Shown in pieces: positions 3,943 through 62,069 of a stretch of DNA of 64,000 nucleotides. Under the pieces are notes generated by a model. The model was given only the letters and a program-made list of their open reading frames with translations. It ran no database searches and had not been told where the DNA came from. Each line of letters starts with the position of its first letter. Position 1 is the stretch's first letter. Source of the stretch: Candidatus Kaiserbacteria bacterium (GTDB taxonomy: Bacteria; Patescibacteriota; Minisyncoccia; Phycocordibacterales; JABMNX01); assembly GCA_016186705.1 (NCBI GenBank), contig JACPLB010000002.1, forward strand, positions 20,811 to 84,810. The letters run 5' to 3'. The position numbers and the translations under genes were made by a program.

Positions 3943-3972
3943 AAACGCGGCAAACGCCGCGTTTTGTGGTAT
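3943..3972 (+). terminator. Rho-independent terminator after ftsZ
   Basis: CGCGGCAAACGCCGCG hairpin followed by a T-tract. Confidence 0.55.
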
Positions 3973-4013
3973 GGTAAAAGCTGTAACCTAAAAGCTGTAA
4001 ACTCACATCTCGT

Positions 4014-6343: not shown

Positions 6344-6459
6344 GCTCCGATTAGAGTGCACAAATTCTGCAAAAAGGTCAACGGAACTGGCGGGCTACCT
6401 CAAGCTACCTGTCCGACCCTGGAGGAGAACTCTGGTGAATCAAGCCCCGTAAGGCTATT

Positions 6460-7590
6460 CTAGCCCTTTTCCAAAGTTAAACCGAAGGTTCCCTGTGCGC
6501 CTTTTTTCAAGAGTTCTCTTTGTGACCTTTTAAACGCATTTTCGACAATATCCCAATATTGTTGAGAATTAACTTTCTCAAGATGCTCTTTTGGCCAATC
6601 GTTTCCATATGCATCCCATTTTAATTCCTTAAATTTCAAGCCATTTCCAAAATACTTTATCTTCGAGTACGTTTCTTTTCTAATAGAAACATTGTATGCA
6701 CTAGAAAACGTTACTGCTATATCATAAGTAAATTCATTATATCCCCAATAAGGTTCTCCAATATCACCATAAAGTATGGGATTGAAAACAAAGAAAAACA
6801 TTTGCAGTTTCTTGCCTCGGAATTTATAGACATCAAACTCACCTATAGTTGTAGACCACCCATAAAAATCATCGATATCAAAAAATCGCTCATTTAAATT
6901 TGCCATATTGCTCACAACTCCTATAAGATTAAAAACAAGCGATTTATCTTTTGAGTCATAGATGAAGAACCAATACTTATAACCCCTTAGTTCAATATCC
7001 GAAAGAATCTTAATTGGTCGTTTTTCTTTTGGATCATGCCGTTCAAATATTGATCTATCTCTTGGATTGAAATCTACTCGAAAATTTGCGCATTCCGCTA
7101 ATCCAGAAGGGCTCAACCCATAGTTTTTTGCTAAATATTCCCATTCGGTAATTTTACGAGGAGAAGGAGTATGTATTGTAAATGCCACTATCATTAAAAT
7201 CAAAATAACCGTTATATAAATTGCAAAGATTAGAAGTCCCGTATTATAGAAAATATAGGACAAAATATTTTCTTCACTAGGAATTGTGGCTAGAAACAAA
7301 AAGAAAGCCGCCAAACCCGTGGTTATTCCTCCCCAAACCAAAAAACGAATCGATTGTCTTATCTCTTGGTGTCTTAATTTATAGTCTTTTAGAATATCAG
7401 TAATTTGTTTTCTCTGTTCCTTCCTTTTGTTGTCACTTTTTTCTTCTAAAAATGATTTTGGTTTTATCAGTCTCCTTAGTCTTGCTCGAAACTCTCTTAA
7501 ATCTTTTAAGGATGGCACTATAAAAAGCGAGAATATGAAAGTATATAAGGCAAAGGTTGCGATTGTAAAAATAGGTGTATAAAGCTCCAT
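6460..7590 (-). CDS. Island gene A: membrane protein with 4 predicted TM helices and a ~220-aa aromatic-rich soluble C-terminal domain; no recognisable family
   Basis: AT-rich ORF, about 33% GC. The likely start is MELYTPIF; the track offers an alternative start at 7668. TM helices are followed by a W/Y/F-rich domain with no motif I recognise. Confidence 0.6.
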   Translation of the reverse strand: MELYTPIFTIATFALYTFIFSLFIVPSLKDLREFRARLRRLIKPKSFLEEKSDNKRKEQRKQITDILKDYKLRHQEIRQSIRFLVWGGITTGLAAFFLFLATIPSEENILSYIFYNTGLLIFAIYITVILILMIVAFTIHTPSPRKITEWEYLAKNYGLSPSGLAECANFRVDFNPRDRSIFERHDPKEKRPIKILSDIELRGYKYWFFIYDSKDKSLVFNLIGVVSNMANLNERFFDIDDFYGWSTTIGEFDVYKFRGKKLQMFFFVFNPILYGDIGEPYWGYNEFTYDIAVTFSSAYNVSIRKETYSKIKYFGNGLKFKELKWDAYGNDWPKEHLEKVNSQQYWDIVENAFKRSQRELLKKGAQGTFGLTLEKG

Positions 7591-7847
7591 AAACTTAATT
7601 AAGCACCTCGTGCTAGCTGTTAGATGCGGGGACGATTGCCGGAACTTTGAACCGAAAGCATGGCTCAAATTCGAGGATCTTGATAAAAGTATACAGAAAT
7701 TAAGGGCTATCTACAAAGTTCATCCAGAATGGTTTGAGGTACCAAAGCCTAAATCAAACAGAGGCAAGAGTGAAATTGATTATTCAGTATCTTGAGTAAT
7801 TGTTATGCCTCAATAGTTGACTCCTATACAGATTAAAGATTTTTATC

Positions 7848-9158
7848 TTAATCAATCTTAAAACCCTTCTTTTGCTGTTCTTTAAGAATTTTTTCGTATA
7901 TTCCACCTTTTCCATAAGGCACTCTTACGGGCATATCAATCTTGCATTCGATATTAGGTACTGTTCCCTTATGGGGAACTGGAATTTGAATATCGCCTTC
8001 TTCCATAAGAAGTTTTGCTAATTCAGCAACGTCATACTCTACAGTGCCAAGAGTTTCATCTTTTTTATCACCAAACATATGAATAATTACTTTGGGAATC
8101 TTACTTTTATCAAGATGCATGAGACAGCACTTCACGATATTAAGCATTTGATATTCATATTTGACTGATTCCTCTAGATGAACGATATCGTAAGCTTCTG
8201 CGGTGCCGAAAAATATTTGCTCATTTCTTCCGATGATTGGAGGATCGTATTTAAGTGATATTTCAAGTACTGTTCTATCATTATCTAATTTGAATTCTTT
8301 CAAAAGAAAACTGCGATTAGTCGCAAAGGACTCGGCTATTTCCTTGATTTCTCGAATTTTGTATACACGCTTGCTAACTATTTTTGCTTCAACGTCAGGA
8401 TTATTTTCCAAAAAGATTAGAAGTCCATTTCTTAAAATCCAGAGGTTAACTCTGCATGTTTGCAGAATGTCTCTTAGTTGTCTTTGCGTGAATTCATAGC
8501 GCTTCTTTTCTTTACCACTTTTATCATCAACCACCTTAAGGACAACCGTCTTATTATCAGTTGTTTCCCATCTATCGTGTCCGGCCCCAGCGTTACGTAT
8601 ATGGTTATCAAAGCCAGAGACTAGGTCCGGAAAATTACCATTCGGTAATGAAAAAGAGGTATTTTTTATCGTTTGAAATTTTTCTCCCGCTGAGACATCA
8701 ACAAACATCTCTGCATCTTTAACAGCATGAGTTTTGCCGTACTTTTTACATAGATAAAAGTATGGGGTCGTTCCATACAACCTAAAGTCACTCTCAAAAA
8801 GAGTTTTATATAAGCTCAACTGACAAGAGAAAATTGTTTCAAGCTCAGAACCTTTCAAAGCACTATAAAGAGAATCTTCGGCCTGTTCCGTCCGCAGACC
8901 GGAATCATTTGCAGTATCGATTATTGTACTAACAACTTGAAGGAATTCTGCCTCATTTTCTTTATATAATTGTTCACACAGTTCCTCGATAAATTTTGTT
9001 GCTTTGAGATCTTTCTGCTGAACAGAATGTCTCCAACCGAGCCAGCCTTGCTGAAAGAAATACCTTACATTCTTTGGTCGTTTGTTTGGATGCTTTAAAA
9101 GTGGTTGGATATAGACTTCAAAATATCTACTTTCTGCCGCTAAGTTTGAATCAAGCAT
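7848..9158 (-). CDS. Island gene B: 436-aa hypothetical protein with a candidate HEPN-like Rx5H motif
   Basis: AT-rich ORF. Contains FDNHIRNAGAGHDRWE, i.e. R-N-x4-H, which is compatible with the HEPN Rx4-6H signature. The start ATG overlaps the upstream gene's TGA by 8 nt. Confidence 0.6.
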   Translation of the reverse strand: MLDSNLAAESRYFEVYIQPLLKHPNKRPKNVRYFFQQGWLGWRHSVQQKDLKATKFIEELCEQLYKENEAEFLQVVSTIIDTANDSGLRTEQAEDSLYSALKGSELETIFSCQLSLYKTLFESDFRLYGTTPYFYLCKKYGKTHAVKDAEMFVDVSAGEKFQTIKNTSFSLPNGNFPDLVSGFDNHIRNAGAGHDRWETTDNKTVVLKVVDDKSGKEKKRYEFTQRQLRDILQTCRVNLWILRNGLLIFLENNPDVEAKIVSKRVYKIREIKEIAESFATNRSFLLKEFKLDNDRTVLEISLKYDPPIIGRNEQIFFGTAEAYDIVHLEESVKYEYQMLNIVKCCLMHLDKSKIPKVIIHMFGDKKDETLGTVEYDVAELAKLLMEEGDIQIPVPHKGTVPNIECKIDMPVRVPYGKGGIYEKILKEQQKKGFKID

Positions 9159-9867
9159 TGTTCTTTACTCTATACTCTAAAAGTAAGTACGAATTTTCGA
9201 GTGGCCTTGCCTGGATAAATTCAAGGGCCTTTATTTTTTTGAGTTCTCCCGAAGTATGTAACGATTCCCCATCCATTAAAGTCGATGTATTTTTGCCACC
9301 AATGAGAGCGGGAGCAACTACCAACCAAACACGATCAATTAAACCTTCTCGCACCAAGGTGGTATTTAAAGTTCCACCTGATTGAATTGTGAGTTTGTCA
9401 GCCCCGAAATCTTGTTTCAGTATCGTAAACAAATCATTGAAATCTACAACTTCTCCATATTCAAAAACGTAGAGGTTGTCAAAATCATTTTTGAGAGATA
9501 CTGCTGGATGATTTTTGTTTGTTGTAGCAATGATAAGATTCTTTGCTTTCTTCGCAAGATATGAGATTCCTTGAGCGGTGAGGTGTGGCTCGTTATCGAT
9601 AACCACAAAACTTACTGGTAATTTCTTCGGTTCATCTTTTTTCTCATTCATTCCAATCTTCGCAAAGACTCTTCCCGTGTTAAGGGAAAACAGGTCAGTT
9701 TGTTGCTCTAGATCGTAGTATTGTTGTAAACCTTCTTTGATACCTGAAATTTTAGGGAAATCCTTATCCACATCTAAAACATCGCTATCGCCAGTCGAGA
9801 TTTTGCCATCGACAGACATAAGCATGAATAGTGTTGTGTCCGGTCTGTTTTTATCTTTATTTTCCAT
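9151..9867 (-). CDS. Island gene C: RibD C-terminal domain / dihydrofolate-reductase-like family protein
   Basis: LFMLMSVDGKIS at the N-terminus, and GLIDRVWLVVAPALIGG ... YLLLEYRV at the C-terminus. These are typical of pfam RibD_C / YwjB-like reductases. Confidence 0.75.
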   Translation of the reverse strand: MENKDKNRPDTTLFMLMSVDGKISTGDSDVLDVDKDFPKISGIKEGLQQYYDLEQQTDLFSLNTGRVFAKIGMNEKKDEPKKLPVSFVVIDNEPHLTAQGISYLAKKAKNLIIATTNKNHPAVSLKNDFDNLYVFEYGEVVDFNDLFTILKQDFGADKLTIQSGGTLNTTLVREGLIDRVWLVVAPALIGGKNTSTLMDGESLHTSGELKKIKALEFIQARPLENSYLLLEYRVKNNA

Positions 9868-9886
9868 AGGTTCAAAGTTGCCAATC

Positions 9887-9976: not shown

Positions 9977-10143
9977 AATATACTATATGTGGTTGGCTTC
10001 AAGACTAGCACTTTTTGCCGAAATGCCCAAAGTATTGTACTATCTCAAAATAACACACGTGTATGTGTTATTTATTTTGGCTTACATAAAGTACCTAAAA
10101 GCTAAAAGCTCAAACCTGTAAGCTTCCGTCAACTGGCAGATAC

Positions 10144-18094: not shown

Positions 18095-18331
18095 CTAGAC
18101 ACCAAGGGCTTCCGAGAGTTTCTCTTTGTCAAACCCGACAAACATTCTCTCTCCGATAAAAATAACCGGTACTCCCATTTGTCCGCTTTTCTCAATCATT
18201 TCCTGCCGCTTATCCATGTCGGTCGCGACGTTGTAATCGGTATATTCAATTTTGTGCTCTTTTAAAAACTCTTTCGTCATCTGGCAGAAGTGACACGTCG
18301 GCGTACTATAAATTACAATGTTCTTCTCCAT
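18095..18331 (-). CDS. Glutaredoxin-like / NrdH-like redoxin (copy 1)
   Basis: Thioredoxin fold with a CHFC active site (YSTPTCHFCQ). A paralog lies at 54168-54404. Confidence 0.8.
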   Translation of the reverse strand: MEKNIVIYSTPTCHFCQMTKEFLKEHKIEYTDYNVATDMDKRQEMIEKSGQMGVPVIFIGERMFVGFDKEKLSEALGV

Positions 18332-22654: not shown

Positions 22655-24982
22655 TTATTCTTCCACGAGAGGCGGAGTGAAGTTCTCAAACGGCGCCCGG
22701 CCGACAATGAGATTTTCAATAATGCTGTTGACCTCTGAATTGCCAGGGTCAAGATTTTTCACAGTGGTCAATTCGCGAATGGCATCTTGAGTCCGACCGG
22801 CTTCATAGTACGAAAGCCCCAAGAAGTAACGAGCATTCGCATACCGACTGTCAATTGAAACTGCCCGTTCAAACGCGCCGATGGCGCCGGAGAAATCCCG
22901 CGTCGAATACTTAAGGAGTCCGAGCTGGAAGAACAGAAGACTATCCTGCGGAGAGAGAAGCGTTGCCGCTTCAACCGACTGAATTGCTCCCTTGGTATTA
23001 CCCTCCCCTATCTCTATCTGCGAGAGAAGTGAGATGGCATTCGTGTAATCATTTTTTATACGAAGCGCTTCGCCAATGTAATCCCGCGCTGTTTGATTGT
23101 TGCCATTAAGCGCTTCAACGCGCGCCAAGTTCAAGAGCATTCTCGGATTATTCGGATTGAGAGTTCGCGCCTGCTCATAAGCGATTTTTGCATTGTCATA
23201 CGCACCATTTATCCGAAGCGGAATGAGCGTCTCGTATATCCGACCGAGGAGAGCCCAGTTCTGGTAATTTCTTTCATCCGCAGACACCGCTTTCTGTGCG
23301 TTCTCTATAGCAGAGGTCAAGAGCGATTGAAACCGCCCCTGCAATTCTTCCGCACTGCCATCCTGATTAAGAAGTCCCGCAAGCCTAAGAAGAAATATCT
23401 CCGCGGATGCCCTGTGTGTTTGGTCGCTCTTGCTGAAAAGGAGCGCTCTGTCGGCGTTTCTTTGCGCCTCCGAAAGGTTGCCCGTCACGCGAAGGGCCAC
23501 GCCGGCGCGCTCTATGTAGACTGACGAGACAAATTTTTCCACGGAAGCGTACAGTCCTAAAGCAAAAGAGACGACGAGAACAAAGAGTAGTGCAACTATC
23601 GCAAACCCGATGCGCGGATTCTCATTAAAGGAGAGTTTCTCCGCTCGTATCCTCCCGGTCCACGTCTCTGCGGCAATGAATATTCCAGAGAAGAGAAATG
23701 CAAGGAAAAAGAGAGTCACGTGGGGAACGTAAAATACGGAAAGTATCCACAGGAAGAGCGCGGCAAAAAACGAGGACGTAGCGAGGTAATCGTCAAACAA
23801 TTTCGAATGCCTCTTGAGAAACGTGCGGGCGCCGCTTACGAGGAATAGGATAAAAAACGCGAGCCAGACAAGAGCGCCGAGAATGCCGTTCGTGATAAAG
23901 AGAGTCGGAATAATGCCGACTCCAAATGAAAAATCAACATCCCAAAACGGAGTCTGATTGGTTCTTAATGGTTTGCTGAGAAGCCATTCTTTTGTAAAAT
24001 TATTCGGTCCGGCGCCGAAGAGCGCTTCTTCCCTGTATACTTTTTCAAAGATTGCAAATGTGCTCTGCCACGAAGGCCGCGCCTCGACTTGAAACGTATT
24101 GAATTGCGCGTCAATAAATTTTTCAAATGAAGGTCCTGCGAATATAAAAAATGCCGAAATGACGAGAACGAATAGGGAGAACCCCGATATCTTTCGGGGG
24201 TGCATGTCCTGATTGGATATTGTCTCCGGAGACCCTTCTTGCGATTTTGTGAGAAATCGGGTTTCAAAAAAAGAGCGGATAAAAAGGAGTGCCGATATTC
24301 CCGCAAGAACGATCCATACCAGCGCGAAGTGGACAACGGCAATCATAAAGAGTCCCGCTATCAAATTTATGTACGAAAGAACCTTAAGCAATCCGCGCGG
24401 ACGAAGGACGTCAAGCGTTATGAGAGAGAGAATGACTATAAGCCCCGAGAAAATAGCGACGTCGTTCCACTTCCCGATTAAGTTTGATGTGCCCCCCGGG
24501 AAGACATTGAGCGGAGAAAATCCGCCGCTCAAAAACAACTGCGCAACATGGTAGACAAAAAAGATAAGCGCGGAGACCGCGAGCGTAAGGTAGAGCGTGA
24601 TAACTTTGTCTTTTGAGGTAAACAGAAACGCTCCGATTCCAAACCCGGCGGACATAACCGTGAGAAACAAGACTGTATCGAGGGCAAATCCCTGCCCGAG
24701 AAGAGAGTGAGTGAAGCTTCCGGAGAGGGCGCTCGAAATAAGGGCGACTATCGGCAATGCAAGGAGTGGGACAGCGAGCACGCCTTTGGGGAAAGTCAGT
24801 GTGTTATCTTTGAGACGAGCAACGCTCCAGAGAAGTCCCGCTAAAAAAACGCCGAGTCCAAGCATAAAAAGCTTTGTGTCGGACGCCGAAACCGATACAA
24901 AAGGAACGACGAAGATGGGTAGAAGAAACACAAGCACGAGAGTTACCAGTATCGCAAGTGAATCAAGTTTCTCGTTTGTCAT
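22655..24982 (-). CDS. O-antigen ligase (Wzy_C)-like polytopic membrane protein with a C-terminal TPR-repeat domain
   Basis: N-terminal multi-TM region plus C-terminal TPR repeats (ARYFLGLSYYEAGR etc.). Confidence 0.7.
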   Translation of the reverse strand: MTNEKLDSLAILVTLVLVFLLPIFVVPFVSVSASDTKLFMLGLGVFLAGLLWSVARLKDNTLTFPKGVLAVPLLALPIVALISSALSGSFTHSLLGQGFALDTVLFLTVMSAGFGIGAFLFTSKDKVITLYLTLAVSALIFFVYHVAQLFLSGGFSPLNVFPGGTSNLIGKWNDVAIFSGLIVILSLITLDVLRPRGLLKVLSYINLIAGLFMIAVVHFALVWIVLAGISALLFIRSFFETRFLTKSQEGSPETISNQDMHPRKISGFSLFVLVISAFFIFAGPSFEKFIDAQFNTFQVEARPSWQSTFAIFEKVYREEALFGAGPNNFTKEWLLSKPLRTNQTPFWDVDFSFGVGIIPTLFITNGILGALVWLAFFILFLVSGARTFLKRHSKLFDDYLATSSFFAALFLWILSVFYVPHVTLFFLAFLFSGIFIAAETWTGRIRAEKLSFNENPRIGFAIVALLFVLVVSFALGLYASVEKFVSSVYIERAGVALRVTGNLSEAQRNADRALLFSKSDQTHRASAEIFLLRLAGLLNQDGSAEELQGRFQSLLTSAIENAQKAVSADERNYQNWALLGRIYETLIPLRINGAYDNAKIAYEQARTLNPNNPRMLLNLARVEALNGNNQTARDYIGEALRIKNDYTNAISLLSQIEIGEGNTKGAIQSVEAATLLSPQDSLLFFQLGLLKYSTRDFSGAIGAFERAVSIDSRYANARYFLGLSYYEAGRTQDAIRELTTVKNLDPGNSEVNSIIENLIVGRAPFENFTPPLVEE

Positions 24983-25094
24983 GAGTCTTTACATTAAATG
25001 TTCATATAACTATACCAAATAACAACGCGTGAGGTAACGAATTCTGTGAGTATAAAAGAAAACAGCCCCGCTTGCGCGGGACTGTTTTCATATA

Positions 25095-25478
25095 TCTCAC
25101 TTGTATCTATAAGCCGAATTCTGTATCTCTCACTTGGATGATCTAGGTGAGGGGTGATAGCTATTTATCTGGTCCCGACGTTACCGTCGGGATCAAGCGG
25201 CACTTCCGCCGGCTGGCGGACGCGGCCTTGCATTCAGGTAAGGATTTAGCCGTTTCACCCCCTCACATGCACTGCATGTGAGGGACTGCGCCTCCAATTG
25301 AGGAGGCACCCATACGTCTTTCGTTGTACGGCGTCTCTGCTCGCACCTCTATCCTTGCGGACGACGGGTGTTACCCGCTACCCTGCTCCCCTCACATGCG
25401 TTGCAGGTGAGGGGGAATGTTCGGACTTTCCTCCAGACGCCGCAGAGGGCATCCGGCAACTATCCGATACAAGCTGTG
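25095..25478 (-). ncRNA. rnpB: RNase P RNA (bacterial type A)
   Basis: The minus strand contains GGAGGAAAGUCCGAAC (P4 5' strand) and ACAGAAUUCGGCUUAUAG (P4 3' strand). It also has GGUAACACC, GGGGGUGAAACGG and GCAAGGCC modules. A P1 helix CUUGUAUC/GAUACAAG joins the two ends. Confidence 0.85.
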
Positions 25479-25529: not shown

Positions 25530-25576
25530 GAGGCAAGAAAAAATGCCACAGGGGTATGGGGCATTTTTTATTTCTT
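25530..25576. terminator. Bidirectional intrinsic terminator between nrdJ 3' region and rnpB
   Basis: AAAAAATGCC-loop-GGCATTTTTT, a 10-bp stem with T-tracts on both sides. Confidence 0.6.
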
Positions 25577-25608
25577 TTCATCTGAGCGAAGACTGCCCAT
25601 TTGAAAGG

Positions 25609-25665
25609 CTTCGCAGGTTGAGCGGGCATGGTATCCTAAGACTTCCAGTATACTGGAAGTCTTAG
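25609..25665. repeat. Conserved ~57-nt hairpin RNA motif, copy 1 (TGAGCGGGCATGG - 36-nt hairpin - ATGAGCGAG)
   Basis: Same core as 34773-34829. The hairpin arms differ at four positions with compensatory changes that preserve pairing. Confidence 0.6.
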
Positions 25666-25745
25666 GATGAGCGAGACCGAGACTTGAGAGTGGGCGCCTG
25701 CTGGGCGCCCAACTCGTACTTTCAAATGGGCAGTGTGAGCGACCT

Positions 25746-28139
25746 TTATTCTATTTCACACGTCCCTCCCGCGCACGCGAGCTCTTTTTTAACTTCGGTC
25801 TCGTCCTGAAGTTCGTACGTCATAAGCTTTGAATAGTCAACGTTTTCGAACCGTTGAACGAGCTTCTCGTATTGTTCTTTCGTAATTTCTTCATATGGAG
25901 CAAGCTGATAGAGATGGTTGCTTCGCGGCAGGAATGAGAGTCCGCCGATGATATCCCAGTTCTTATACAGCCAGTCGGCGACGGTAATCCATTCGTTTTC
26001 TCCTACCGAAATCGTCGTTGATGGATTGTGCTCGGTGAAGTTCTTTTTGACTATCTTCCAATGTTCAAGCTGGTCGAGCGCGGTAATCTCATCTCGAAAG
26101 ACAGTGCCCTTCGGGGACTTGACCGGAAACTCCAATACGAACGTGTTGGCGCTCTCCATCGTCTGTCCAACTTCCGGATGAAACGGCACTCCTTGGTCTT
26201 TGAGCATCTTAAAGAGCGAGTCGGTTGCGGAAATGCGGATGCGGCGAATGTAATACGGAGCGTGCCGCGGATGCATGCCAGAGGCGCAGTTCACTGTCTG
26301 TGAGACTGTTCCCGACGGCTTGACGCAGGTAATTGCGTTTGAATGGTTGACGCCAAATTTTTTTGCGTACTGTTTGTTGACCTTGACGGTCTCGGCGCGA
26401 AGTTTCTTCAAAACCGGCGCCTGCCGAACCGCTTTTGAATCCCATTGACCGGTCAAGGAGACTCCAAGCAGACGTTCCGCTTCACAGTTTTCTTTCCAAT
26501 CTTTTGAAAGATATCTGAAATTCGTGAGTGTTGACTGATACGTGCCGAGAATTGTCGCGATGCGCACCTTGCGCAAAAGTGACGCTTCCGTGTCCTCCGC
26601 TCGGCAAATAACTTCGGAGAGATTGCAGAACTGCTTCGACTGTAAAATAATTTCCCCGCACGGGTTTGTTCCCGGTCGGTTGATGCCGTGCTGACCACCC
26701 TCATCAGAATTGTCCTTGTACTTATTTTTCAAATAGGCAAGGCGTCTCTCCGGCAATTGCTTCACGAGACTCCCGCGGTTAAAGATTCCGCGTTCGCCCG
26801 TGCCCGCTTTCATGAGCGCAAACCACTCTTCCATGAACTCAAGGTTTGATGGTCTCTCCTCATAGACGGCGGAATTATTCGCGAGCGAACGCTGTGGATT
26901 CGCAAGCCAAAACTGCCCGTTTTTCGCGTCCCTGACATCGTCATCATCGAGGTCGGAGAGAGAAATCATTGCCGAGCGGCGAACACCGCCAGAGACAATC
27001 GCTTCACCGATTTTGCAGATAATGTCGTGTGCGTCTATGTTGCGCAGACGCCGCCCTTGACGTGAAAGTACCCGTTCACGGGCAAAATTAAGCAATTGCC
27101 GCAGCGGTTCAGGTCCCGATGCTTTGCCGCCCATGGTCTTCAGCCGAGACCCCGCGGGACGGACGTTGGAGTAATCAAACGAAACATCTTTACCGTCAAA
27201 CCATGCTCGAAGACCATGAAGAAGAGCGTCTGCCCATCCTTCCGCCGAATCAGGTACGACGAAGACCTCGAGTTTTTTTCCAGTCTGCGGTTTGATCTGC
27301 GGAAGCTGTCCGATGTTCCAGCTCTCCACTCCAAAACCGACACCCGTTCCTTTTGACGAGAGGTAGAGAATTTCCGCGAAATCCTCGAGTCTCGTCGGCG
27401 CAATGTAGGAACAATTGTACGCGCAGACATTGCATTTGCGGGCGGCATCTCCGGCAAACTGCATGAGCCGCATTGACGGCATGACTTCCTGTTTGAGAAC
27501 TGCTTCCCGGATTTCCGTGTACTCTTTTGCGGTAAGTTTCGTCCCGAGATTCTCTTTCATAAAGCTGATGTAGCGGTCGACCGTTTCAATCCACGTCTCA
27601 CGCCGCCCCTCTTCACCTACCCAGCGCGCGTATGAACGCAGATACACAAAGTAGCCGAGGTCGTTTCCTTTAAAATATTTCGCGCTCTCCTCCGAAAGTT
27701 TTTTGACGCGCTCCGGTACGACAATGCCGAGCTCGCGAAGCTTTGCGCGTTCCGCCCGATAGAGAATGTACGATTTCGCAGTGACAACGTAATCGCCCAA
27801 AATGAGCTGCCGTTCTACTTCGTCCTGACATCCTTCGACGGTCGGCATGAAGTTACGGTATTTTCGCGCAATGCGAACCATGTCCGACGCCACCCGGTGC
27901 GCAACCATGATAGATTCCTCTTTTGAGCCCTCATTGCTTGCGACCATTGCCTTATGAATCGCGTGCGCAATCTTGTTGAAGTCAAATGGAACAATGCGTC
28001 CGTCGCGCTTTTGGATTTTACCGATAAATTTCTTGTAATCGGCTGCGTTGACGACATCTTTTTCTTGCGTGTCGACTTTTGTGTTCATAATCTCGTTAAT
28101 GTGCGCACGAGCTTTTTCCTGTTTGCGGGCATTGAGCAT
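25746..28139 (-). CDS. nrdJ: Ribonucleotide reductase, class II (adenosylcobalamin-dependent), with N-terminal ATP-cone
   Basis: NPCGEI active-site motif and C-terminal CAGGTCEIE redox tail. N-terminal ATP-cone (HINEIMNTKV...). Confidence 0.85.
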   Translation of the reverse strand: MLNARKQEKARAHINEIMNTKVDTQEKDVVNAADYKKFIGKIQKRDGRIVPFDFNKIAHAIHKAMVASNEGSKEESIMVAHRVASDMVRIARKYRNFMPTVEGCQDEVERQLILGDYVVTAKSYILYRAERAKLRELGIVVPERVKKLSEESAKYFKGNDLGYFVYLRSYARWVGEEGRRETWIETVDRYISFMKENLGTKLTAKEYTEIREAVLKQEVMPSMRLMQFAGDAARKCNVCAYNCSYIAPTRLEDFAEILYLSSKGTGVGFGVESWNIGQLPQIKPQTGKKLEVFVVPDSAEGWADALLHGLRAWFDGKDVSFDYSNVRPAGSRLKTMGGKASGPEPLRQLLNFARERVLSRQGRRLRNIDAHDIICKIGEAIVSGGVRRSAMISLSDLDDDDVRDAKNGQFWLANPQRSLANNSAVYEERPSNLEFMEEWFALMKAGTGERGIFNRGSLVKQLPERRLAYLKNKYKDNSDEGGQHGINRPGTNPCGEIILQSKQFCNLSEVICRAEDTEASLLRKVRIATILGTYQSTLTNFRYLSKDWKENCEAERLLGVSLTGQWDSKAVRQAPVLKKLRAETVKVNKQYAKKFGVNHSNAITCVKPSGTVSQTVNCASGMHPRHAPYYIRRIRISATDSLFKMLKDQGVPFHPEVGQTMESANTFVLEFPVKSPKGTVFRDEITALDQLEHWKIVKKNFTEHNPSTTISVGENEWITVADWLYKNWDIIGGLSFLPRSNHLYQLAPYEEITKEQYEKLVQRFENVDYSKLMTYELQDETEVKKELACAGGTCEIE

Positions 28140-32894: not shown

Positions 32895-33404
32895 TTATGA
32901 AAACAGCTCTATCGTTCTTTTAACTTCTTCTTTCACTCCGTCAATACAATTGTACTTTTGTACTTCGTCCGCATTCACCCACGCAAAATCGGTGAAGCTT
33001 CCTTTCTCCGGACGCACTTCGCCGCCTTTGTACTCCGCGGCAAACTTAACGAGGACTACCGGTACGCCGTCGGGCCGGACAAACGCGACACTGTTAAGAT
33101 AGAGAAGAACATCTTTAATCTCAATATTCGCCTCTTCTTTTGCTTCACGATGCAGTATGCCCTCAACCGCATCTTCAAAATCAAATATGTCTCCGTTCAT
33201 ACGCGTCGGTCGCTCAAGCGGTAAGTTATTCCACTCGAGTTTTCCTCCGATGACTCCCCACTTGCCGGGATGCGCGATTTCGCGTAGGGCGCGCTTCAGG
33301 ATAAGGCATCGTGCATCGTCCGTGCGGAGCACAACGACGTTTGCCACGAAGTAAAAGAGTTTGTTTTGTTTCGCCTTATCAAGAGAGATGCTGTGTGCCC
33401 GCAT
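32895..33404 (-). CDS. NUDIX hydrolase
   Basis: Nudix box GGKLEWNN...EGILHREAKEEANIEI is intact. Confidence 0.85.
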   Translation of the reverse strand: MRAHSISLDKAKQNKLFYFVANVVVLRTDDARCLILKRALREIAHPGKWGVIGGKLEWNNLPLERPTRMNGDIFDFEDAVEGILHREAKEEANIEIKDVLLYLNSVAFVRPDGVPVVLVKFAAEYKGGEVRPEKGSFTDFAWVNADEVQKYNCIDGVKEEVKRTIELFS

Positions 33405-33414
33405 GAAAAAGAGT

Positions 33415-33921
33415 TTACGAGAAGAGCTTGATAGTCTTCAGTACATCCATGTCTATATCCTCAATGTGGTCGTATTTCTTTATCTCTTCTTCGTTCACCC
33501 ACGCAAAATCGGTAAACCCCGCTTTCGGTTTTACTTCGCCTCCCAGATATCGGGCCCCGAACCGCACCAAGACCGACGGAGTGCCATCCGGACGCACGAA
33601 AAAGACGCTCTCAAGATACTGCGGACGGCTTCCGACTTCAATCCCCGCTTTTTCTTTCACAATAACGGCAACCTGTTTTTCAAGCGGACGGTTGAAGTTA
33701 AGGATTCCATTACTCTTCATATCCGGCTTTGATAGATTGAAGTCATCCCACGCGAGTTTGCCTCCCGGAAGCGCCCACTTGCCGGGATACACATCGTCTT
33801 TCATGTCGCGCTTCAGAATGAGGCACCTCCGGTCGCTCTCCCGATAGACGACAATGGTAGTGACAAAGTAGAAAAGCTTGTCCTTCTCGGCGTTATCAAG
33901 ACTAATCCGCTTCCTCGCCAT
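33415..33921 (-). CDS. NUDIX-fold paralog with degenerate Nudix box
   Basis: About 45% identical to the neighbouring gene. The REAKEE catalytic box is replaced by KEKAGIEV. Confidence 0.7.
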   Translation of the reverse strand: MARKRISLDNAEKDKLFYFVTTIVVYRESDRRCLILKRDMKDDVYPGKWALPGGKLAWDDFNLSKPDMKSNGILNFNRPLEKQVAVIVKEKAGIEVGSRPQYLESVFFVRPDGTPSVLVRFGARYLGGEVKPKAGFTDFAWVNEEEIKKYDHIEDIDMDVLKTIKLFS

Positions 33922-33925
33922 GGGG

Positions 33926-34486
33926 CTAGAACGTTACCTTAACAGGTTCTTTCGCGGCATTCTCGCCTTCTCCCAGTTCGAAGAACTCCTGTTTGCCGAA
34001 GTGAAATGTATTTCCGATGATATTCTGGGGAAACGATTCCAGAGCGGTGTTGAGGTCCCGCACATTGCCGTTGTAAAAGCGCCGCGCTGCCTGAATTTTG
34101 TTTTCGGTGTCGGAGAGTTCCCGTTGAAGCTCAAGAAAGTTCGCGTTTGCCTTAAGGTCGGGGTAACTCTCCGCAACCGCGAAGAGCGACTTGAGCGCGT
34201 CTGTAAGCATGTTCTCCGCCCGCCCTTTTTCGTTAAGCCCGCCCGCCTGCATTGCCTTTGCCCGCATCTCGGTCACTTGCGCAAGTGTCTTCTTTTCATG
34301 AGCCGCGTATCCCTGTACGGTATTCACCAAATTCGGAATGAGGTCGTAACGGCGTTTCAGCTGAACGTCAATGTCCGCCCACGCCTCCTTCGCGCGGTTC
34401 ATAAACGTTACAAACCGATTGTAGGCAAAAATCGCCCACAGTACGATAACCACGATAATTCCTAAGACAATATAGAGGGTAGTCAT
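33926..34486 (-). CDS. lemA: LemA family protein
   Basis: N-terminal TM helix plus the LemA signature ...RRYDLIPNLVNTV. Confidence 0.85.
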   Translation of the reverse strand: MTTLYIVLGIIVVIVLWAIFAYNRFVTFMNRAKEAWADIDVQLKRRYDLIPNLVNTVQGYAAHEKKTLAQVTEMRAKAMQAGGLNEKGRAENMLTDALKSLFAVAESYPDLKANANFLELQRELSDTENKIQAARRFYNGNVRDLNTALESFPQNIIGNTFHFGKQEFFELGEGENAAKEPVKVTF

Positions 34487-34772
34487 AATGTAGCTTTTAG
34501 GTGTTAGCTTTTAGGGTTAAAATTTACCAAGCAATTATACAACAATCGGGCAAAATAAAAAAGCTTTGTTTAATAGATGACCGATAAAAACGAGTGTGTC
34601 TCTTTTTGAAAGCTATCGGAGGCGGCAGAGCTTGGTTTCATTCTTTCCTTTTTAGCGAGAGAAAACAGGTTTCTGGAACATTCACAGGAAAATTGTGTAT
34701 ATTTCTTTTTCTATTCAAGCGAGTCTTCTGCTTGAGGAAGACTTTCCGCCGGAGGGGCGGATAAACTCCACC

Positions 34773-34829
34773 TGAGCGGGCATGGCATCCAAGGACTTCC
34801 AGTATATTGGAAGTCCTTGGATGAGCGAG
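34773..34829. repeat. Conserved ~57-nt hairpin RNA motif, copy 2
   Basis: TGAGCGGGCATGG + CATCCAAGGACTTCCAGTATATTGGAAGTCCTTGGATG + AGCGAG. Confidence 0.6.
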
Positions 34830-34834
34830 GTGCC

Positions 34835-34863
34835 TTGACAAAAGTTATAATATGGTATATAAT
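34835..34863 (+). promoter_or_regulatory. Consensus sigma70 promoter: TTGACA, 17-nt spacer, TATAAT
   Basis: CTTGACAAAAGTT...TATAAT. It is paralogous to the promoter at 283-311. Confidence 0.6.
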
Positions 34864-34916
34864 TAACAACAGGATTCAGATGATGTCATCTGGAATGGTT
34901 CAGAGGAAGTTTCACC

Positions 34917-35171
34917 ATGACTACATCGCAAACGCAAACCCAAATCAACGTGAGGACACTCTTCTTTGCGTGTGCCTTCGCTGGGCTCTTCGTTGTTTCG
35001 GCCTTGATCCCGGTTTTCTCAAGTCCGATCTTCAGCTACCTGGTCCTGGCACTCGATATGAACGTCCTGCTCGCGTACCTCCTGTCGAACTTCATCGTTG
35101 CCACGATCGCCTTCGTCGCCTTTCTCTTCTACATGCGGAAGATGACGCAACGAAAGCCGACCGGGGGCTAA
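34917..35171 (+). CDS. Small membrane protein, 84 aa, 2 TM helices
   Basis: Consensus promoter, a palindromic 5'UTR hairpin CAGATGATGTCATCTG, and a GAGGAAG Shine-Dalgarno precede the ORF. A strong terminator follows. Confidence 0.5.
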   Translation: MTTSQTQTQINVRTLFFACAFAGLFVVSALIPVFSSPIFSYLVLALDMNVLLAYLLSNFIVATIAFVAFLFYMRKMTQRKPTGG

Positions 35172-35185
35172 CAAGGTCCGACGCA

Positions 35186-35222
35186 CCCCGCCACTCTCTC
35201 TTTTGAGTGGCGGGGTTTAAGT
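35186..35222 (+). terminator. Rho-independent terminator
   Basis: CCCCGCCACTC-loop-GAGTGGCGGGG followed by TTTAAGTTTT. Confidence 0.7.
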
Positions 35223-35335
35223 TTTATCTACACGAATACTCAAGTGCTTTTATGCCTGAGAGCGTCCCGTCGAGGAGAAACTGAAGCATCGCGCCGCCGC
35301 GCTTTTCTTTTTAATTTTTCCACTTAAGCGAGCAA

Positions 35336-35454
35336 ATATAAGTTTATAGAACATTCGCAGGAAAATTTGCATGGTTCTGCGCAAGCAGAAAATTTTCCGA
35401 GGACGAAGAAAATCACTCGCTGGAGTGATTTTCTGATTCTATAAACTTATATTT
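35336..35454. repeat. 18-bp perfect inverted repeat pair flanking ~85 bp, downstream of groEL
   Basis: AAATATAAGTTTATAGAA ... TTCTATAAACTTATATTT. Internal smaller palindromes are present. Confidence 0.5.
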
Positions 35455-35467
35455 CACGAGCGACCCA

Positions 35468-37129
35468 TTACATCATCCCCGGCATCCCGCCTCCCATGCC
35501 GCCCATTGGAGGCATGCCGCCGCCTTTCTCTTCCTCTGGCTCGTCCGCGATCGCGACCTCCGTTGTAAGGAGCATTGCCGCAGCTGACGACGCATTCTGG
35601 AGACAGCTTCGTGTTACCTTGACCGGGTCGAGAATTCCAGCAGAGAGCATGTCGTCAACAATCATGTCTTGTTTCGCGTCATACCCGCAGTTTACTTTTC
35701 CGCTCTTTACTTTCTCGACAATGACGGAGCCGTCTTCCTTACCGGCATTGATGACGATTTGCTTCAATGGCGTCTCAAGCGCGCGAAGCACTATCTCAAA
35801 GCCGACGGCTTCTTCCTGGCTCATGTTGCCTTTATTCTTTTCAAATTGGTTGCGTACTTTTTGCGCGACTTTCACGAGCGCCGTCCCGCCACCCGGAACA
35901 ACGCCTTCTTCTACCGCCGCTTTCGTCGCATTGACCGCGTCTTCAATCTTAAGCTTGAGATACTTCATTTCAGTTTCAGTCGCCGCTCCGACACGAATAA
36001 TCGCAACTCCGCCGGAGAGTTTCGCGATTCGCTCCTCTATTTTCTCCGCGTCAAATTTCGAGTCAATCCCCTCAAGCTGTTTTCGCAACTGCGCGACACG
36101 TGCTTCAATGTCCGCCTTTTTCCCTTTCCCTCCGACAATAACGGTTTTGTCCTTGTTTGAAACGACACGGCTTGCTTTGCCGAGCATACCAAGTTCAGCT
36201 TTTTCGAAAGTAAGTCCCCGTTCCTCTGAAATGACTTCTCCGCCGACAACCGTCGCGATATCTTCAAGCATCGCTTTCTTTCGGTCGCCATACCCCGGAG
36301 CTTTCACAGCCAAAACATTAAACGCTCCGCGAAGTTTATTAACGACAAACGTTGCGAGTGCTTCTCCATCCACGTCATCCGCGATAATTACCAAATCTTT
36401 TCTGCCCGTCTGCGCGAGTTTTTCAAGAAGCGGAAGAACTTCCTGCACCGACGAAATTTTCTTGTCGGTAATGAGAATTTGAATGTCCTTGTATTCTGCC
36501 TCCATTCTTTCAGAATTTGTGACCATGTACGCGGAAACGTAGCCGTTGTCGAACTCAAGACCCTCAACCACTTCCTTTTCAATGCCAAGCGACTGCGATT
36601 CCTCAACGGTTACGACACCGTCTTTGCCGACTGCATTAATGGTGTCCGCGATAATTCTTCCGATATCGTCCGACTCCGCGGAAATTGTGGCGACCTGTTT
36701 TATTTCTTCCTTTCCCTGGATCGGTTTTGCGATTTTATAGAGCGCCGCCACAGCTTCTTTCGTCGCCTGCTCAATGCCGGAGCGGATACCCATGGCATTT
36801 ACTCCCATCGTTGCCTGCTTGAAACCTTCGTTCGCGATTGCCTGCGCAATAACGACTGATGTTGTTGTTCCGTCACCGGCAATTTCATTTGTTTTGTGGG
36901 CAACCTCTTTGATAATCTCGGCGCCCATGTTTTCAATTTTGTCCTTGAGACTTATTTCTTTCGCGATAGACACGCCGTCATTTGTAATCATCGGCGCTCC
37001 GAACCCCTTGTCCACAACCACGTTGCGTCCCCGAGGGCCGAGCGTTATTTTGACCGCATCCGCGACCTGGTCAATGCCTCTTTTCAGAAGGCGGCGAGCT
37101 TGTTCATCAAAAATAATCTGTTTTGCCAT
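35468..37129 (-). CDS. groL: Chaperonin GroEL
   Basis: Full-length Cpn60 with the C-terminal GGM repeat. Confidence 0.97.
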
Positions 37130-37196
37130 ATTGTTTTAATTTTAAATCTTGTAGATTTGAGACATTCCCTAAAAGCTCAAAGCTAACACCTAAAAG

Positions 37197-37511
37197 CTAT
37201 TTTATTACTGCTAAAATATTCTCTTCTTTTACGATGTAATACTTTACTTCGTCAACCGTAATCTCGTCGTATCCGTATTTCGAAAAGACGACCCGGTCAT
37301 TGACTTTCACTCTTACCGGAATCACTTCTCCCTTTTCGGTCACCCGACCGAGACCGACGGCAATGACTTTCCCCTCCTCCGGCTTTTCCTGACTCACGGT
37401 ATCCGGAATAATAATTCCACTTTTTGTTTTCTGCTCACGGGGCGGAATTTCAATCAATACCCTGTCCCCTAACGGGGAAATTCTCGGTTTTTTTGCTGAA
37501 CCTTTTGGCAT
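37197..37511 (-). CDS. groS: Co-chaperonin GroES
   Basis: Cpn10, located upstream of groEL. Confidence 0.95.
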   Translation of the reverse strand: MPKGSAKKPRISPLGDRVLIEIPPREQKTKSGIIIPDTVSQEKPEEGKVIAVGLGRVTEKGEVIPVRVKVNDRVVFSKYGYDEITVDEVKYYIVKEENILAVIK

Positions 37512-54167: not shown

Positions 54168-54404
54168 TTACGCAATATCAAGAAGTGGCTTAAGTTTTGC
54201 TTCGTCAAAACCGATAATCATTTCATCGTCGACAAAAATAACCGGCACACCCATCTGTCCGCTCTTTTGAATCATCTCATCCCGCTTTGCCGTATCGGTT
54301 GAGACATCATAATTGGTGAATGCGATGTTGTACTCCTTGAAGAATGCTTTTGCCGCCTGGCAGAAGTGACAGGTGGGTGTTGAGTATATCGTTACGTTTT
54401 TCAT
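54168..54404 (-). CDS. Glutaredoxin-like / NrdH-like redoxin (copy 2)
   Basis: YSTPTCHFCQ active site. About 60% identical to 18095-18331. Confidence 0.8.
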   Translation of the reverse strand: MKNVTIYSTPTCHFCQAAKAFFKEYNIAFTNYDVSTDTAKRDEMIQKSGQMGVPVIFVDDEMIIGFDEAKLKPLLDIA

Positions 54405-61070: not shown

Positions 61071-61209
61071 TTACATAGTATACCAGCAAAAATGAAGCCG
61101 GAGCGGGAGGAGGTGTGCTCCCGTTCCGGCTATTGTGTGTGCGGGGAGTCCGGCCGCAAGCTGGCTCACGAATTACCGCGCACACAAAAACCAAAAGGAC
61201 TTTACCTTG

Positions 61210-61282
61210 AGCCGAGGGGGAGAATTGAACTCCCGACCTACGGTTTACGATACCGTTGCTCTACCAACTGAGCTACCTCGGC
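61210..61282 (-). tRNA. tRNA-Thr(CGT)
   Basis: Reverse complement is GCCGAGGTAGCTCAGTTGGTAGAGCAACGGTATCGTAAACCGTAGGTCGGGAGTTCAATTCTCCCCCTCGGCT. Confidence 0.85.
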
Positions 61283-61325: not shown

Positions 61326-61766
61326 TTATGTTAGAAACCGACCTTCCTTTGCTCTTTTGCTCATTGCGCGATTTTTCCTTCCATTCCCTCTATTTAATCC
61401 TGCATAAGTCGGGCTAAGGGCGTCACAGTTAGGACATATTAATCTCAGGTTCTTCTCCGTATTATTACGCCAGTTACCGTCAATATGATCGGCAACCAGA
61501 GGGACTTTTCCGGTTTTTGGATTCACTTTTGACCATCCACACAGACAACACCTGTTTCTAAATTTCCTTCGTAAATATTTCTTAACATATAGAGAGACAA
61601 CACCATGCCCCTGTAAACCGTTCTCGGCGCCGGACTTCCATTTTCTTATGTATGTTTGGTGCTGATGTTCGAGTTGACACGCATTACTGCAATATTTATA
61701 GCTCGGTCTCGCTGGTTCTGCACCACACATTAAGCATGCTGACCTCGGCTTTCTCGGCATCGGCAT
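61326..61766 (-). CDS. HNH endonuclease
   Basis: CCLCGW...VPLVADHIDGNWRNNTEKNLRLICPNCD is an HNH motif with flanking Cys pairs. Start placed at MPMPRK so that it does not overlap the tRNA. Confidence 0.7.
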   Translation of the reverse strand: MPMPRKPRSACLMCGAEPARPSYKYCSNACQLEHQHQTYIRKWKSGAENGLQGHGVVSLYVKKYLRRKFRNRCCLCGWSKVNPKTGKVPLVADHIDGNWRNNTEKNLRLICPNCDALSPTYAGLNRGNGRKNRAMSKRAKEGRFLT

Positions 61767-61831
61767 ACGTGTATGATACCGCGAATCAACGACCAATAGA
61801 AAGAGGTGGGATTGGTCGTATGTTGATAAAC

Positions 61832-61907
61832 TGGAGCCCAAGGGCGGGATTGAACCGCCGACCTCGTCCTTACCATGGACGTGCTCTACCAACTGAGCTA
61901 CCTGGGC
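61832..61907 (-). tRNA. tRNA-Thr(GGT)
   Basis: Reverse complement is GCCCAGGTAGCTCAGTTGGTAGAGCACGTCCATGGTAAGGACGAGGTCGGCGGTTCAATCCCGCCCTTGGGCTCCA. CCA is encoded. Confidence 0.85.
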
Positions 61908-62069
61908 AACAGCTTAAAACATACACTATTTGAAGGAGAAATTAAATGCCTCATACCTATGAGGCATTTTTTATAATCAACTTTTTTGCGGGAAGGTGGG
62001 GACATGAATTCGCTTATTCGCCTGCTAACGGAAAGCGGTTTCTGTCTCGGCTCAAAACAAGGTCTTTGT

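Follow-up and report, generated by a model that had tools for sequence, protein, structure and literature searches.

Background

The REP, BIME and REPIN elements of proteobacteria are repetitive extragenic palindromes that are mobilised by RAYT transposases. A REP is short and imperfectly palindromic, bears a conserved GT(A/G)G tetranucleotide at its 5' end and has a stem of ~10-15 bp, and tens to hundreds of copies are found per genome. MITEs (Correia, ERIC and RUP are examples) are, like the small dispersed repeats that occur nested in cyanobacteria, 100-160 nt in size and delimited by terminal inverted repeats and short flanking direct repeats. [quoted passage not shown] REPINs have been described elsewhere (PMC3116915). 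In CPR bacteria, stem-loop tigRNAs have variable palindromic stems and are conserved only near their box motifs, and in a CPR TasR clade the loop bears an extended hairpin (PMC12045711; bioRxiv 10.64898/2026.09.09.750476).

The DNA analysed here (the window) is a 64-kb stretch of a reduced CPR genome, assembled from a metagenome and belonging to Candidatus Kaiserbacteria (Patescibacteria). A preliminary description had picked out in this stretch a 57-nt hairpin motif occurring twice. We report herein that the hairpin pair is a real, non-random, structured repeat, and that it is part of a previously unrecorded, small and lineage-specific family of elements, designated E1, E2 and E3 (Table 1). 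How this family relates to the palindromic repeats named above, and whether it acts as DNA or as RNA, is weighed below.

Table 1. Elements, modules and neighbouring genes in the window
Feature	Position	Strand	Remarks
MurJ and TPR protein	22655-24982	-	
Terminator-like hairpin	25541-25571	.	With A-tract and T-tract; separates E1 from the RNase P RNA gene
Element E1	25583-25744	+	Three-way junction, ~160 nt; based on fold z-scores, inverted repeats, missing in relatives
TGAGCGA	25583-25589	+	TGAGCG(A/G) motif 1 of 4 in E1, all in the same sense; others at 25619, 25668 and 25736
E1, 5' part			TGAGCGA, P1 arm (25592-25607, 16 bp), TTCGCAGG, TGAGCGG-GCATGGT, P2
Hairpin module, copy 1	25619-25675	+	TGAGCGG-GCATGGT, 18-bp palindrome 25633-25668, then GAGCGAG; P2 arm of E1
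E1, 3' part			GAGCGAG..CCGAGAC, P3 (25692-25698 / 25704-25710), P1' (25719-25734), TGAGCGACC
Class II, ATP-cone ribonucleotide reductase (nrdJ-like RNR)	25746-28139	-	
M48 peptidase, two NUDIX genes	between RNR and LemA	-	
LemA	33926-34486	-	
E2, 5' part	34652-34772	+	Decayed chimeric element; repeat D9; E3-like AGCGAG, P1-like arm 34662-34678, CATTCACAGGAAAATT
Hairpin module, copy 2	34773-34829	+	TGAGCGG-GCATGGC, 16-bp stem, 34786-34823, GAGCGAG; inside decayed E2
Consensus sigma-70-type promoter	34835-34863	+	TTGACA-17-TATAAT, 12/12; serves the 84-aa ORFan
84-aa predicted membrane protein, ORFan	34917-35171	+	Own terminator at 35185-35216
Element E3	35324-35465	+	Sister of E1; based on three-helix fold, shared motifs, missing in relatives
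E3, 5' part			AAGCGAG, P1 arm (35334-35351, 18 bp), TTCGCAGG, GCATGGT, P2
E3, P2			Lower 35360-35368 / 35390-35398; upper 35376-35380 / 35385-35389, GCAA loop
E3, 3' part			CCGAGGAC, P3 (35407-35418 / 35423-35434), P1' (35437-35454), CGAGCGACC
groEL, then groES	35468-37129 (groEL)	-	

Results

The hairpin module is present in two copies

The two copies of the module are identical at 51 of 57 nt. Their local alignment scores 84, whereas none of 1000 shuffles exceeded 28, and a covariance model built from the pair recovered the pair and no other site in the window (90 bits, E~4e-20); these values lie far beyond chance. The homology between them ends abruptly, at TGAGCG on the left and at GAGCGAG on the right. 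A recent duplication of some longer segment had been named in the preliminary description as an explanation that would dispose of the repeat; because the homology stops exactly at the 57-nt borders, the module is not the by-product of such an event.

Copy 1 is a perfect 18-bp palindrome, equivalently a 16-bp stem with a TATA loop, and copy 2 forms a 16-bp stem (arms 34786-34801 and 34808-34823) with a loop of 6 nt. On either side, TGAGCGGGCATGG and GGATGAGCGAG match in both copies, which agrees with the identical flanks reported at the outset. The preliminary description gave copy 2 its true position (34773-34829) but put copy 1 at 25609-25665, 10 nt away from where it lies (25619-25675). The embedded reading frames do differ, as it had said (M-V-S-stop in one copy and 18 aa in the other, by inspection of the sequence). 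A small peptide as the conserved product was rejected on the sequence; conservation does not lie at the protein level, and its earlier placing at the RNA or DNA level stands.

All six differences between the copies (alignment columns 14, 19, 21, 35, 44 and 46) fall at paired positions. The earlier claim that changes in the arms preserve every base pair is correct, although the pairs compensated number two, not three. These two are changed on both sides (U-A to A-U and A-U to G-C), and two further pairs are changed on one side (U-G/C-G and G-C/G-U). When six substitutions were placed at random in a simulation, at least two compensated pairs arose with P=5.6e-4; a shuffle control on the covariation of the copies is powerless with n=2 sequences. 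The two wobble pairs fit the + strand, while on the - strand they would be A-C mismatches. Since both are located at helix ends, they are weak evidence in favour of the + strand. With 51 of 57 nt shared and the pairing kept, the proposal of a small repeated element with a maintained hairpin is supported.

Copy 1 is an arm of the nested element E1

The module had been conceived as a stand-alone regulatory hairpin. This is unsupported, as copy 1 proved to be an arm of a larger nested structure and copy 2 sits in a decayed element. Copy 1 is enclosed by the perfect 16-bp outer stem P1 (25592-25607 / 25719-25734), alongside a second hairpin (25692-25710). The E1 region (175 nt) is predicted to fold at -89.9 kcal/mol, with z=-9.7 on the + strand and z=-8.8 on the - strand. 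Read on the - strand, E1 starts 8 nt past the stop codon of the RNR gene (25746), ahead of a terminator-like hairpin, and given the position of that hairpin E1 would lie inside the RNR transcription unit.

Within the 160 nt of E1 there are four TGAGCG(A/G) motifs, compared with 35 on the same strand across 64 kb; they form direct repeats that border the outer stem and also the inner hairpin. In an integron attC site, by contrast, an inverse core (RYYYAAC) and a core (GTTRRRY) pair with each other, and an integrase is encoded nearby. This candidate was rejected: the TGAGCGA flanks are direct, not inverted, repeats, and there is no integrase in the window.

An intrinsic terminator would likewise be a stable, G+C-containing hairpin directly past a gene, and relatives have plain ones at the same sites. 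However, neither strand has a U-tract behind P1, P2 or P3, a terminator scan did not list the hairpins of the E elements, and a separate terminator-like hairpin comes after E1. For the lack of a T-run behind the hairpins on either strand, this reading was rejected.

The terminator-like hairpin at 25541-25571 has counterparts at 61944-61974 and 10048-10078, all with A- and T-tracts; the three are 71-81% mutually identical and make up a small repeat family. Beyond it, the RNase P RNA gene (25094-25475, - strand) scores 103.5 bits in Rfam, barely above the threshold of 100. Within it, a hairpin at 25258-25284 recurs almost unchanged at 25389-25415, the two being 89% complementary; in one relative, this gene contains a 19-bp stem with a 99-nt loop (L021:5880-6016). 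On the other side of the RNR gene, the adjacent NUDIX genes (32895-33404 and 33415-33921) are diverged tandem paralogues (~71%; repeats D4 and D7), of which relatives have one or two.

E3 is a sister of E1, and E2 is a chimera

On the - strand, E3 starts 3 nt past the stop codon of groEL (35468), at a distance of ~500 nt from copy 2. It folds into a junction of three helices, as E1 does (z=-6.3). The stems of the two elements are unrelated in sequence, including P1, which is ACTGCCCATTTGAAAG in E1 and AAATATAAGTTTATAGAA in E3. What they have in common is a set of short motifs at corresponding positions: AGCGA 2 nt ahead of P1, TTCGCAGG from 3 nt after the P1 arm, GCATGGT abutting P2, GCTGG within the P3 loop, and GAGCGACC 2-3 nt after P1'. 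A covariance model made from E3 alone aligns the whole of E1, in the same orientation (23.3 bits, E~0.002), an E-value that is not relied on, as plain long hairpins in the relatives score as high as E1 under the same model. A collinear k-mer chain statistic was marginal (43 for E1/E3 vs a maximum of 46 in window controls). The case for the homology of E1 and E3 is carried by the position-anchored motifs, not by the covariance-model score.

E2 combines features of both. Its 5' part is like that of E3 (repeat D9, 34636-34694 / 35309-35367, 76% identity; alignment score 44 vs a shuffle maximum of 30), and its P2 is like the hairpin of E1, being copy 2 itself. Its P1-like arm has no partner anywhere in the 64-kb window. 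Between CATTCACAGGAAAATT and copy 2 lie ~79 nt that contain AGCGAG once more, as well as two short hairpins. E2 is intergenic and runs directly into the promoter of the 84-aa ORFan.

That promoter matches the consensus at 12 of 12 positions and begins 5 nt after copy 2, in line with the adjoining promoter of the preliminary description, which had suggested a protein-binding hairpin. A dimeric regulator might then bind the 36-bp palindrome as an operator and control transcription of the ORFan; the palindrome is perfect and directly upstream of the -35 box, and the symmetric changes between the copies preserve its dyad symmetry. We nevertheless hold an operator to be very improbable. Copy 1 has no promoter within reach, but lies between a stop codon and a terminator-like hairpin, within a larger fold, and the gene so regulated would be an ORFan for which a search of 5.8 billion proteins returned no homologue besides itself. 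Typical operators are much shorter than a perfect palindrome of 36-38 bp. In addition, the -35 box (TTGACA) aligns with TTGAGA of E1, which suggests that the promoter arose beside or from element DNA. Thus, an operator function tied to the promoter is unsupported. Because copy 2 sits in a decayed chimeric copy of the element, its closeness to the -35 box looks incidental; the promoter belongs to an inserted ORFan gene and is probably not under the control of the hairpin.

In the spacer between groEL and LemA (34487-35467), the ORFan with its promoter and terminator is bracketed by E-element DNA (34636-34694 / 35309-35367). A separate motif, CCTAAAAGCT, often doubled, occurs at 3972-4010, 10093-10124, 34491-34516 and 37167-37198. 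It is found near gene starts or a tRNA and in both orientations, and its sites include the LemA leader and the groES-groEL spacer.

The elements are missing from syntenic loci of relatives

Syntenic loci were compared in three relatives (L016, L017 and L021), whose RNR genes are 81-82% identical to the one studied here. All three have plain terminator hairpins after the RNR gene, and E1 is missing. Their groEL-LemA spacers measure 123-133 nt, compared with 981 nt here; E2, E3 and the ORFan, which together account for ~850 nt between groEL and LemA, are missing as well. The DNA of the closest relative (SRR22388126; RNR 91%) is ~90% identical up to 8 nt past the RNR stop codon. From there, at the very position where E1 starts, it has a different stem of 20 bp (GCGCATCTCTTTTTTGAAAC / GTTTCCAAAAAAGAGATGCGC), seen at L020:3172-3208 and L101:1-50 in two contigs that both end just inside the stem. 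On account of this different stem, the site 8 nt past the RNR stop codon is a hotspot of palindrome turnover.

Perfect intergenic palindromes of unusual length, with stems of 20-22 bp, are also found elsewhere in the three relatives (L016:19660-19703, L016:7514-7623, L017:20721-20761 and L021:14704-14748). Their sequences are unrelated to the E elements.

Short-read contigs break within copy 1, at the centre of the palindrome, which might be taken as a sign of an assembly artefact. However, independent Logan assemblies from several runs of the source samples reproduced both loci at every base, and the contig ends fit the effect expected of a perfect palindrome longer than k=31. Together with the 57-nt borders and the alignment scores, the assemblies led us to reject chance similarity, artefact and a fragment of a recent larger duplication, an explanation whose probability we consider negligible.

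The same comparison bears on a role as RNA. E1 and E3 may be selected three-way junctions in 3' UTRs, with the 57-nt hairpin as the P2 arm and copy 2 as a remnant, and such cis-acting RNAs could conceivably protect the RNR and groEL mRNAs from 3' exonucleases, end transcription, or offer a platform for processing or binding. Both elements lie in the same orientation and begin 3-8 nt past a stop codon, each after a highly expressed gene, with E1 before a terminator-like hairpin; their junction motifs are kept while their stems, entirely different, are perfectly paired; six of six substitutions between the hairpin copies keep pairing; and the stability of the folds is very high (z from -6 to -10). 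On the other hand, the relatives keep these genes with ordinary terminators and lack the elements at the same sites, and copy 2 is outside any 3' UTR. Of the stem pairs in E1, E2 and E3, 101 of 101 are Watson-Crick, with no internal G-U pair and no mismatch. Such stems are expected of DNA palindromes, and would be unusual had selection acted on the RNA for long. The two wobble pairs of the module fit the + strand, whereas the carrier genes are on the - strand, and there is no Rfam match. We therefore regard a functional cis-acting RNA, including the roles proposed for it, as unlikely, though it is the main rival of the reading preferred below.

Searches for further copies and partner genes

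The preliminary description had expected that a functional motif would have further copies and covariation in homologues. No further copies came to light, and the only covariation is that of the two copies and the sister element E3, which goes part of the way towards the refutation that the description had itself named. The hairpin covariance model, run on the window and ~75 kb of relatives, returned only the two known copies. The flank pattern TGAGCGGGCATGG-N32-42-GATGAGCG had 12 matches in 185,579 species genomes (the source genome not among them); scattered over taxa and with no hairpin in any, all 12 were rejected as chance. In JGI metagenomes the hairpin pattern had two matches, neither a further copy: one was unpaired, and the other was an ordinary terminator after an SSB-like gene. 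Three patterns gave chance or coding matches only in viral contigs, and blastn against phages and plasmids gave no matches. Rfam 15, at permissive thresholds, yielded no family, only hairpins resembling miRNA precursors at 13-22 bits against thresholds of 52-100. The count so far stands at two copies of the hairpin and three elements, and of the 64-kb window a stretch of 10 kb contains them all.

No transposase, RAYT or integrase was found among the window's ORFs of at least 100 aa. There is likewise no Nop/Tas or IS110 protein among the window ORFs, and none of the unannotated ORFs matches TasR among PDB sequences. These results count against a further reading, in which the elements would be guide-RNA-like parts of an RNA-guided system, comparable by analogy to the stem-loop TIGR tigRNAs of CPR bacteria or to IS110 bridge RNAs. 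Such a reading, which we consider improbable, would account for the variable long stems, the loop hairpin and the box motifs; the GAGCG in the internal loop of P2 would match the element's own flanks, and E1 does carry TGAGCG both in that loop and at both flanks. Published descriptions of CPR stem-loop tigRNAs resemble the E elements (PMC12045711; bioRxiv 10.64898/2026.09.09.750476). The rule for these units requires box C (CNA/CUU), a spacer of 8-10 nt and box D (YG), twice, with a gap of at most 15 nt, flanked by a stem. Re-implemented here, it matched no unit in E1, E2 or E3 on either strand, even when the gap was relaxed to 60 nt. Moreover, the loops of the E elements span 85-111 nt and include an extra hairpin, and there is no tandem arrangement of the elements. 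By the same analogy, and with as little probability, they might be the RNA or folded single-stranded DNA part of an undescribed CPR system whose partner is encoded elsewhere, in which GAGCG in the P2 loop addresses the flanking GAGCG. A self-addressing element of this kind, doubtful as it is, would be a guide or a recombination substrate with a distant likeness to TIGR stem-loop tigRNAs or IS110 bridge RNAs.

Three other regions of the window were recorded during these searches. Between tRNA-Val and tRNA-Ser lies an island of low G+C content (6344-9886; 37-38% vs ~50%), whose two ORFs (402 and 436 aa) match nothing in Pfam, NCBIfam, PADLOC or PDB sequences. An ORF resembling HNH or homing endonucleases (61326-61892, - strand; PADLOC HEase, E=2.5e-12; no Pfam match) is wedged between the tRNA-Thr genes at 61209-61282 and 61832-61907. 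Finally, a 188-nt repeat (18117-18304 / 54193-54380, 74% identical) overlaps 78-aa ORFs at 18095-18331 and 54168-54404, which are probably paralogous small genes.

Discussion

The reading we prefer, to which we give about an even chance, is that the hairpin is a unit of a lineage-specific mosaic palindromic repeat, of the REP/BIME or MITE kind, that spreads at the DNA level and is co-transcribed in 3' UTRs. Perfect stems, the shuffling and nesting of modules, and presence or absence among close relatives are the reasons for assigning it to this kind. A complete element measures ~140-160 nt, with a long perfect P1 enclosing the hairpins P2 and P3, short conserved single-stranded motifs at the junctions, and (T)GAGCGA in the same sense just outside the stems. 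Such elements would arise and spread as DNA, either through transposition of a hairpin-forming single strand or through template switching and gene conversion between copies at GAGCG microhomologies. DNA-level spread would account for the perfect Watson-Crick stems, for the shuffled modules (E2 being an E3-like 5' part joined to an E1-like P2), and for the presence and absence of elements. The ability to form a hairpin may be preserved through selection for mobility or through hairpin-templated correction, and the compensatory changes between the copies would follow from this.

The complete elements, E1 and E3, share one orientation directly after the stop codons of the nrdJ-like RNR gene and groEL. 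Because of this position, and because a terminator-like hairpin follows E1, both are probably transcribed together with these genes, as 3'-UTR structures of great stability, and could incidentally stabilise the RNR and groEL mRNAs or end them. The E elements are, most likely, selfish or structural DNA and not a regulator.

Several points speak against a mosaic repeat spread as DNA. A truly mobile family should show more copies than these, although only 64 kb were read. No window ORF of at least 100 aa encodes a transposase, RAYT or integrase, and the covariance model supports the homology of E1 and E3 no better than it does plain long hairpins. The outer stems of E1 and E3 differ wholly while the junction motifs are kept, which is the opposite of what ordinary MITEs do and fits a functional folded RNA. 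Moreover, the flanking direct repeats have the same sequence at different sites, and hence are not ordinary target-site duplications.

If the E elements turn over fast after highly expressed genes, then the dynamics of hairpin-based repeats extend to CPR bacteria as well. Nested palindromic elements would also flag the sites at which short-read assemblies break. Should the elements instead be functional RNAs or guides, which is unlikely, they would constitute a new CPR-specific class of RNA.

Like TIGR stem-loop arrays, the E elements occur in a CPR host and are flexible in genomic position; their palindromic stems vary, what is conserved lies only near the loop, and the loop holds a secondary hairpin. 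However, their loops are far longer, they form no tandem array, and no Tas gene is present in the 64 kb.

The likeness to MITEs and to the cyanobacterial repeats lies in size, in the 16-bp inverted repeat of E1 with TGAGCGA on either side, in the nesting of one palindromic unit within another, and in insertion relative to syntenic loci, the elements being missing at the corresponding sites of L016, L017 and L021. Unlike MITEs, they have no known parent insertion sequence. Terminal inverted repeats are not conserved, since P1 differs altogether between E1 and E3 while the interiors share motifs, and in place of site-specific target duplications the same (T)GAGCGA stands at every element at fixed offsets. 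For these two reasons the family does not belong to the MITEs.

With REP, BIME and REPIN elements, the E elements share hairpin units that are extragenic and lie just past stop codons within transcription units (8 nt for E1 and 3 nt for E3, with E2 intergenic), compensated variation of the stem beside a fixed short unpaired motif, a mosaic make-up of palindromic units and short motifs, and presence or absence between close relatives. They differ from REPs in that the neighbour of the hairpin is GGCATGG(T/C) and not a GTAG/GTGG head, in their perfect stems of 16-18 bp, in the nesting of units in a three-way junction where REPs are arranged as inverted pairs, in their number (two to three copies in the 64-kb window, with no RAYT gene among its ORFs of at least 100 aa), and in their host, a reduced CPR genome. 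Without a GTAG head, and with no RAYT seen in the window, they lack defining features of REPs. As far as sequence comparison can place them, the E elements appear to stand outside REPs and MITEs proper, as a variant of that general kind.
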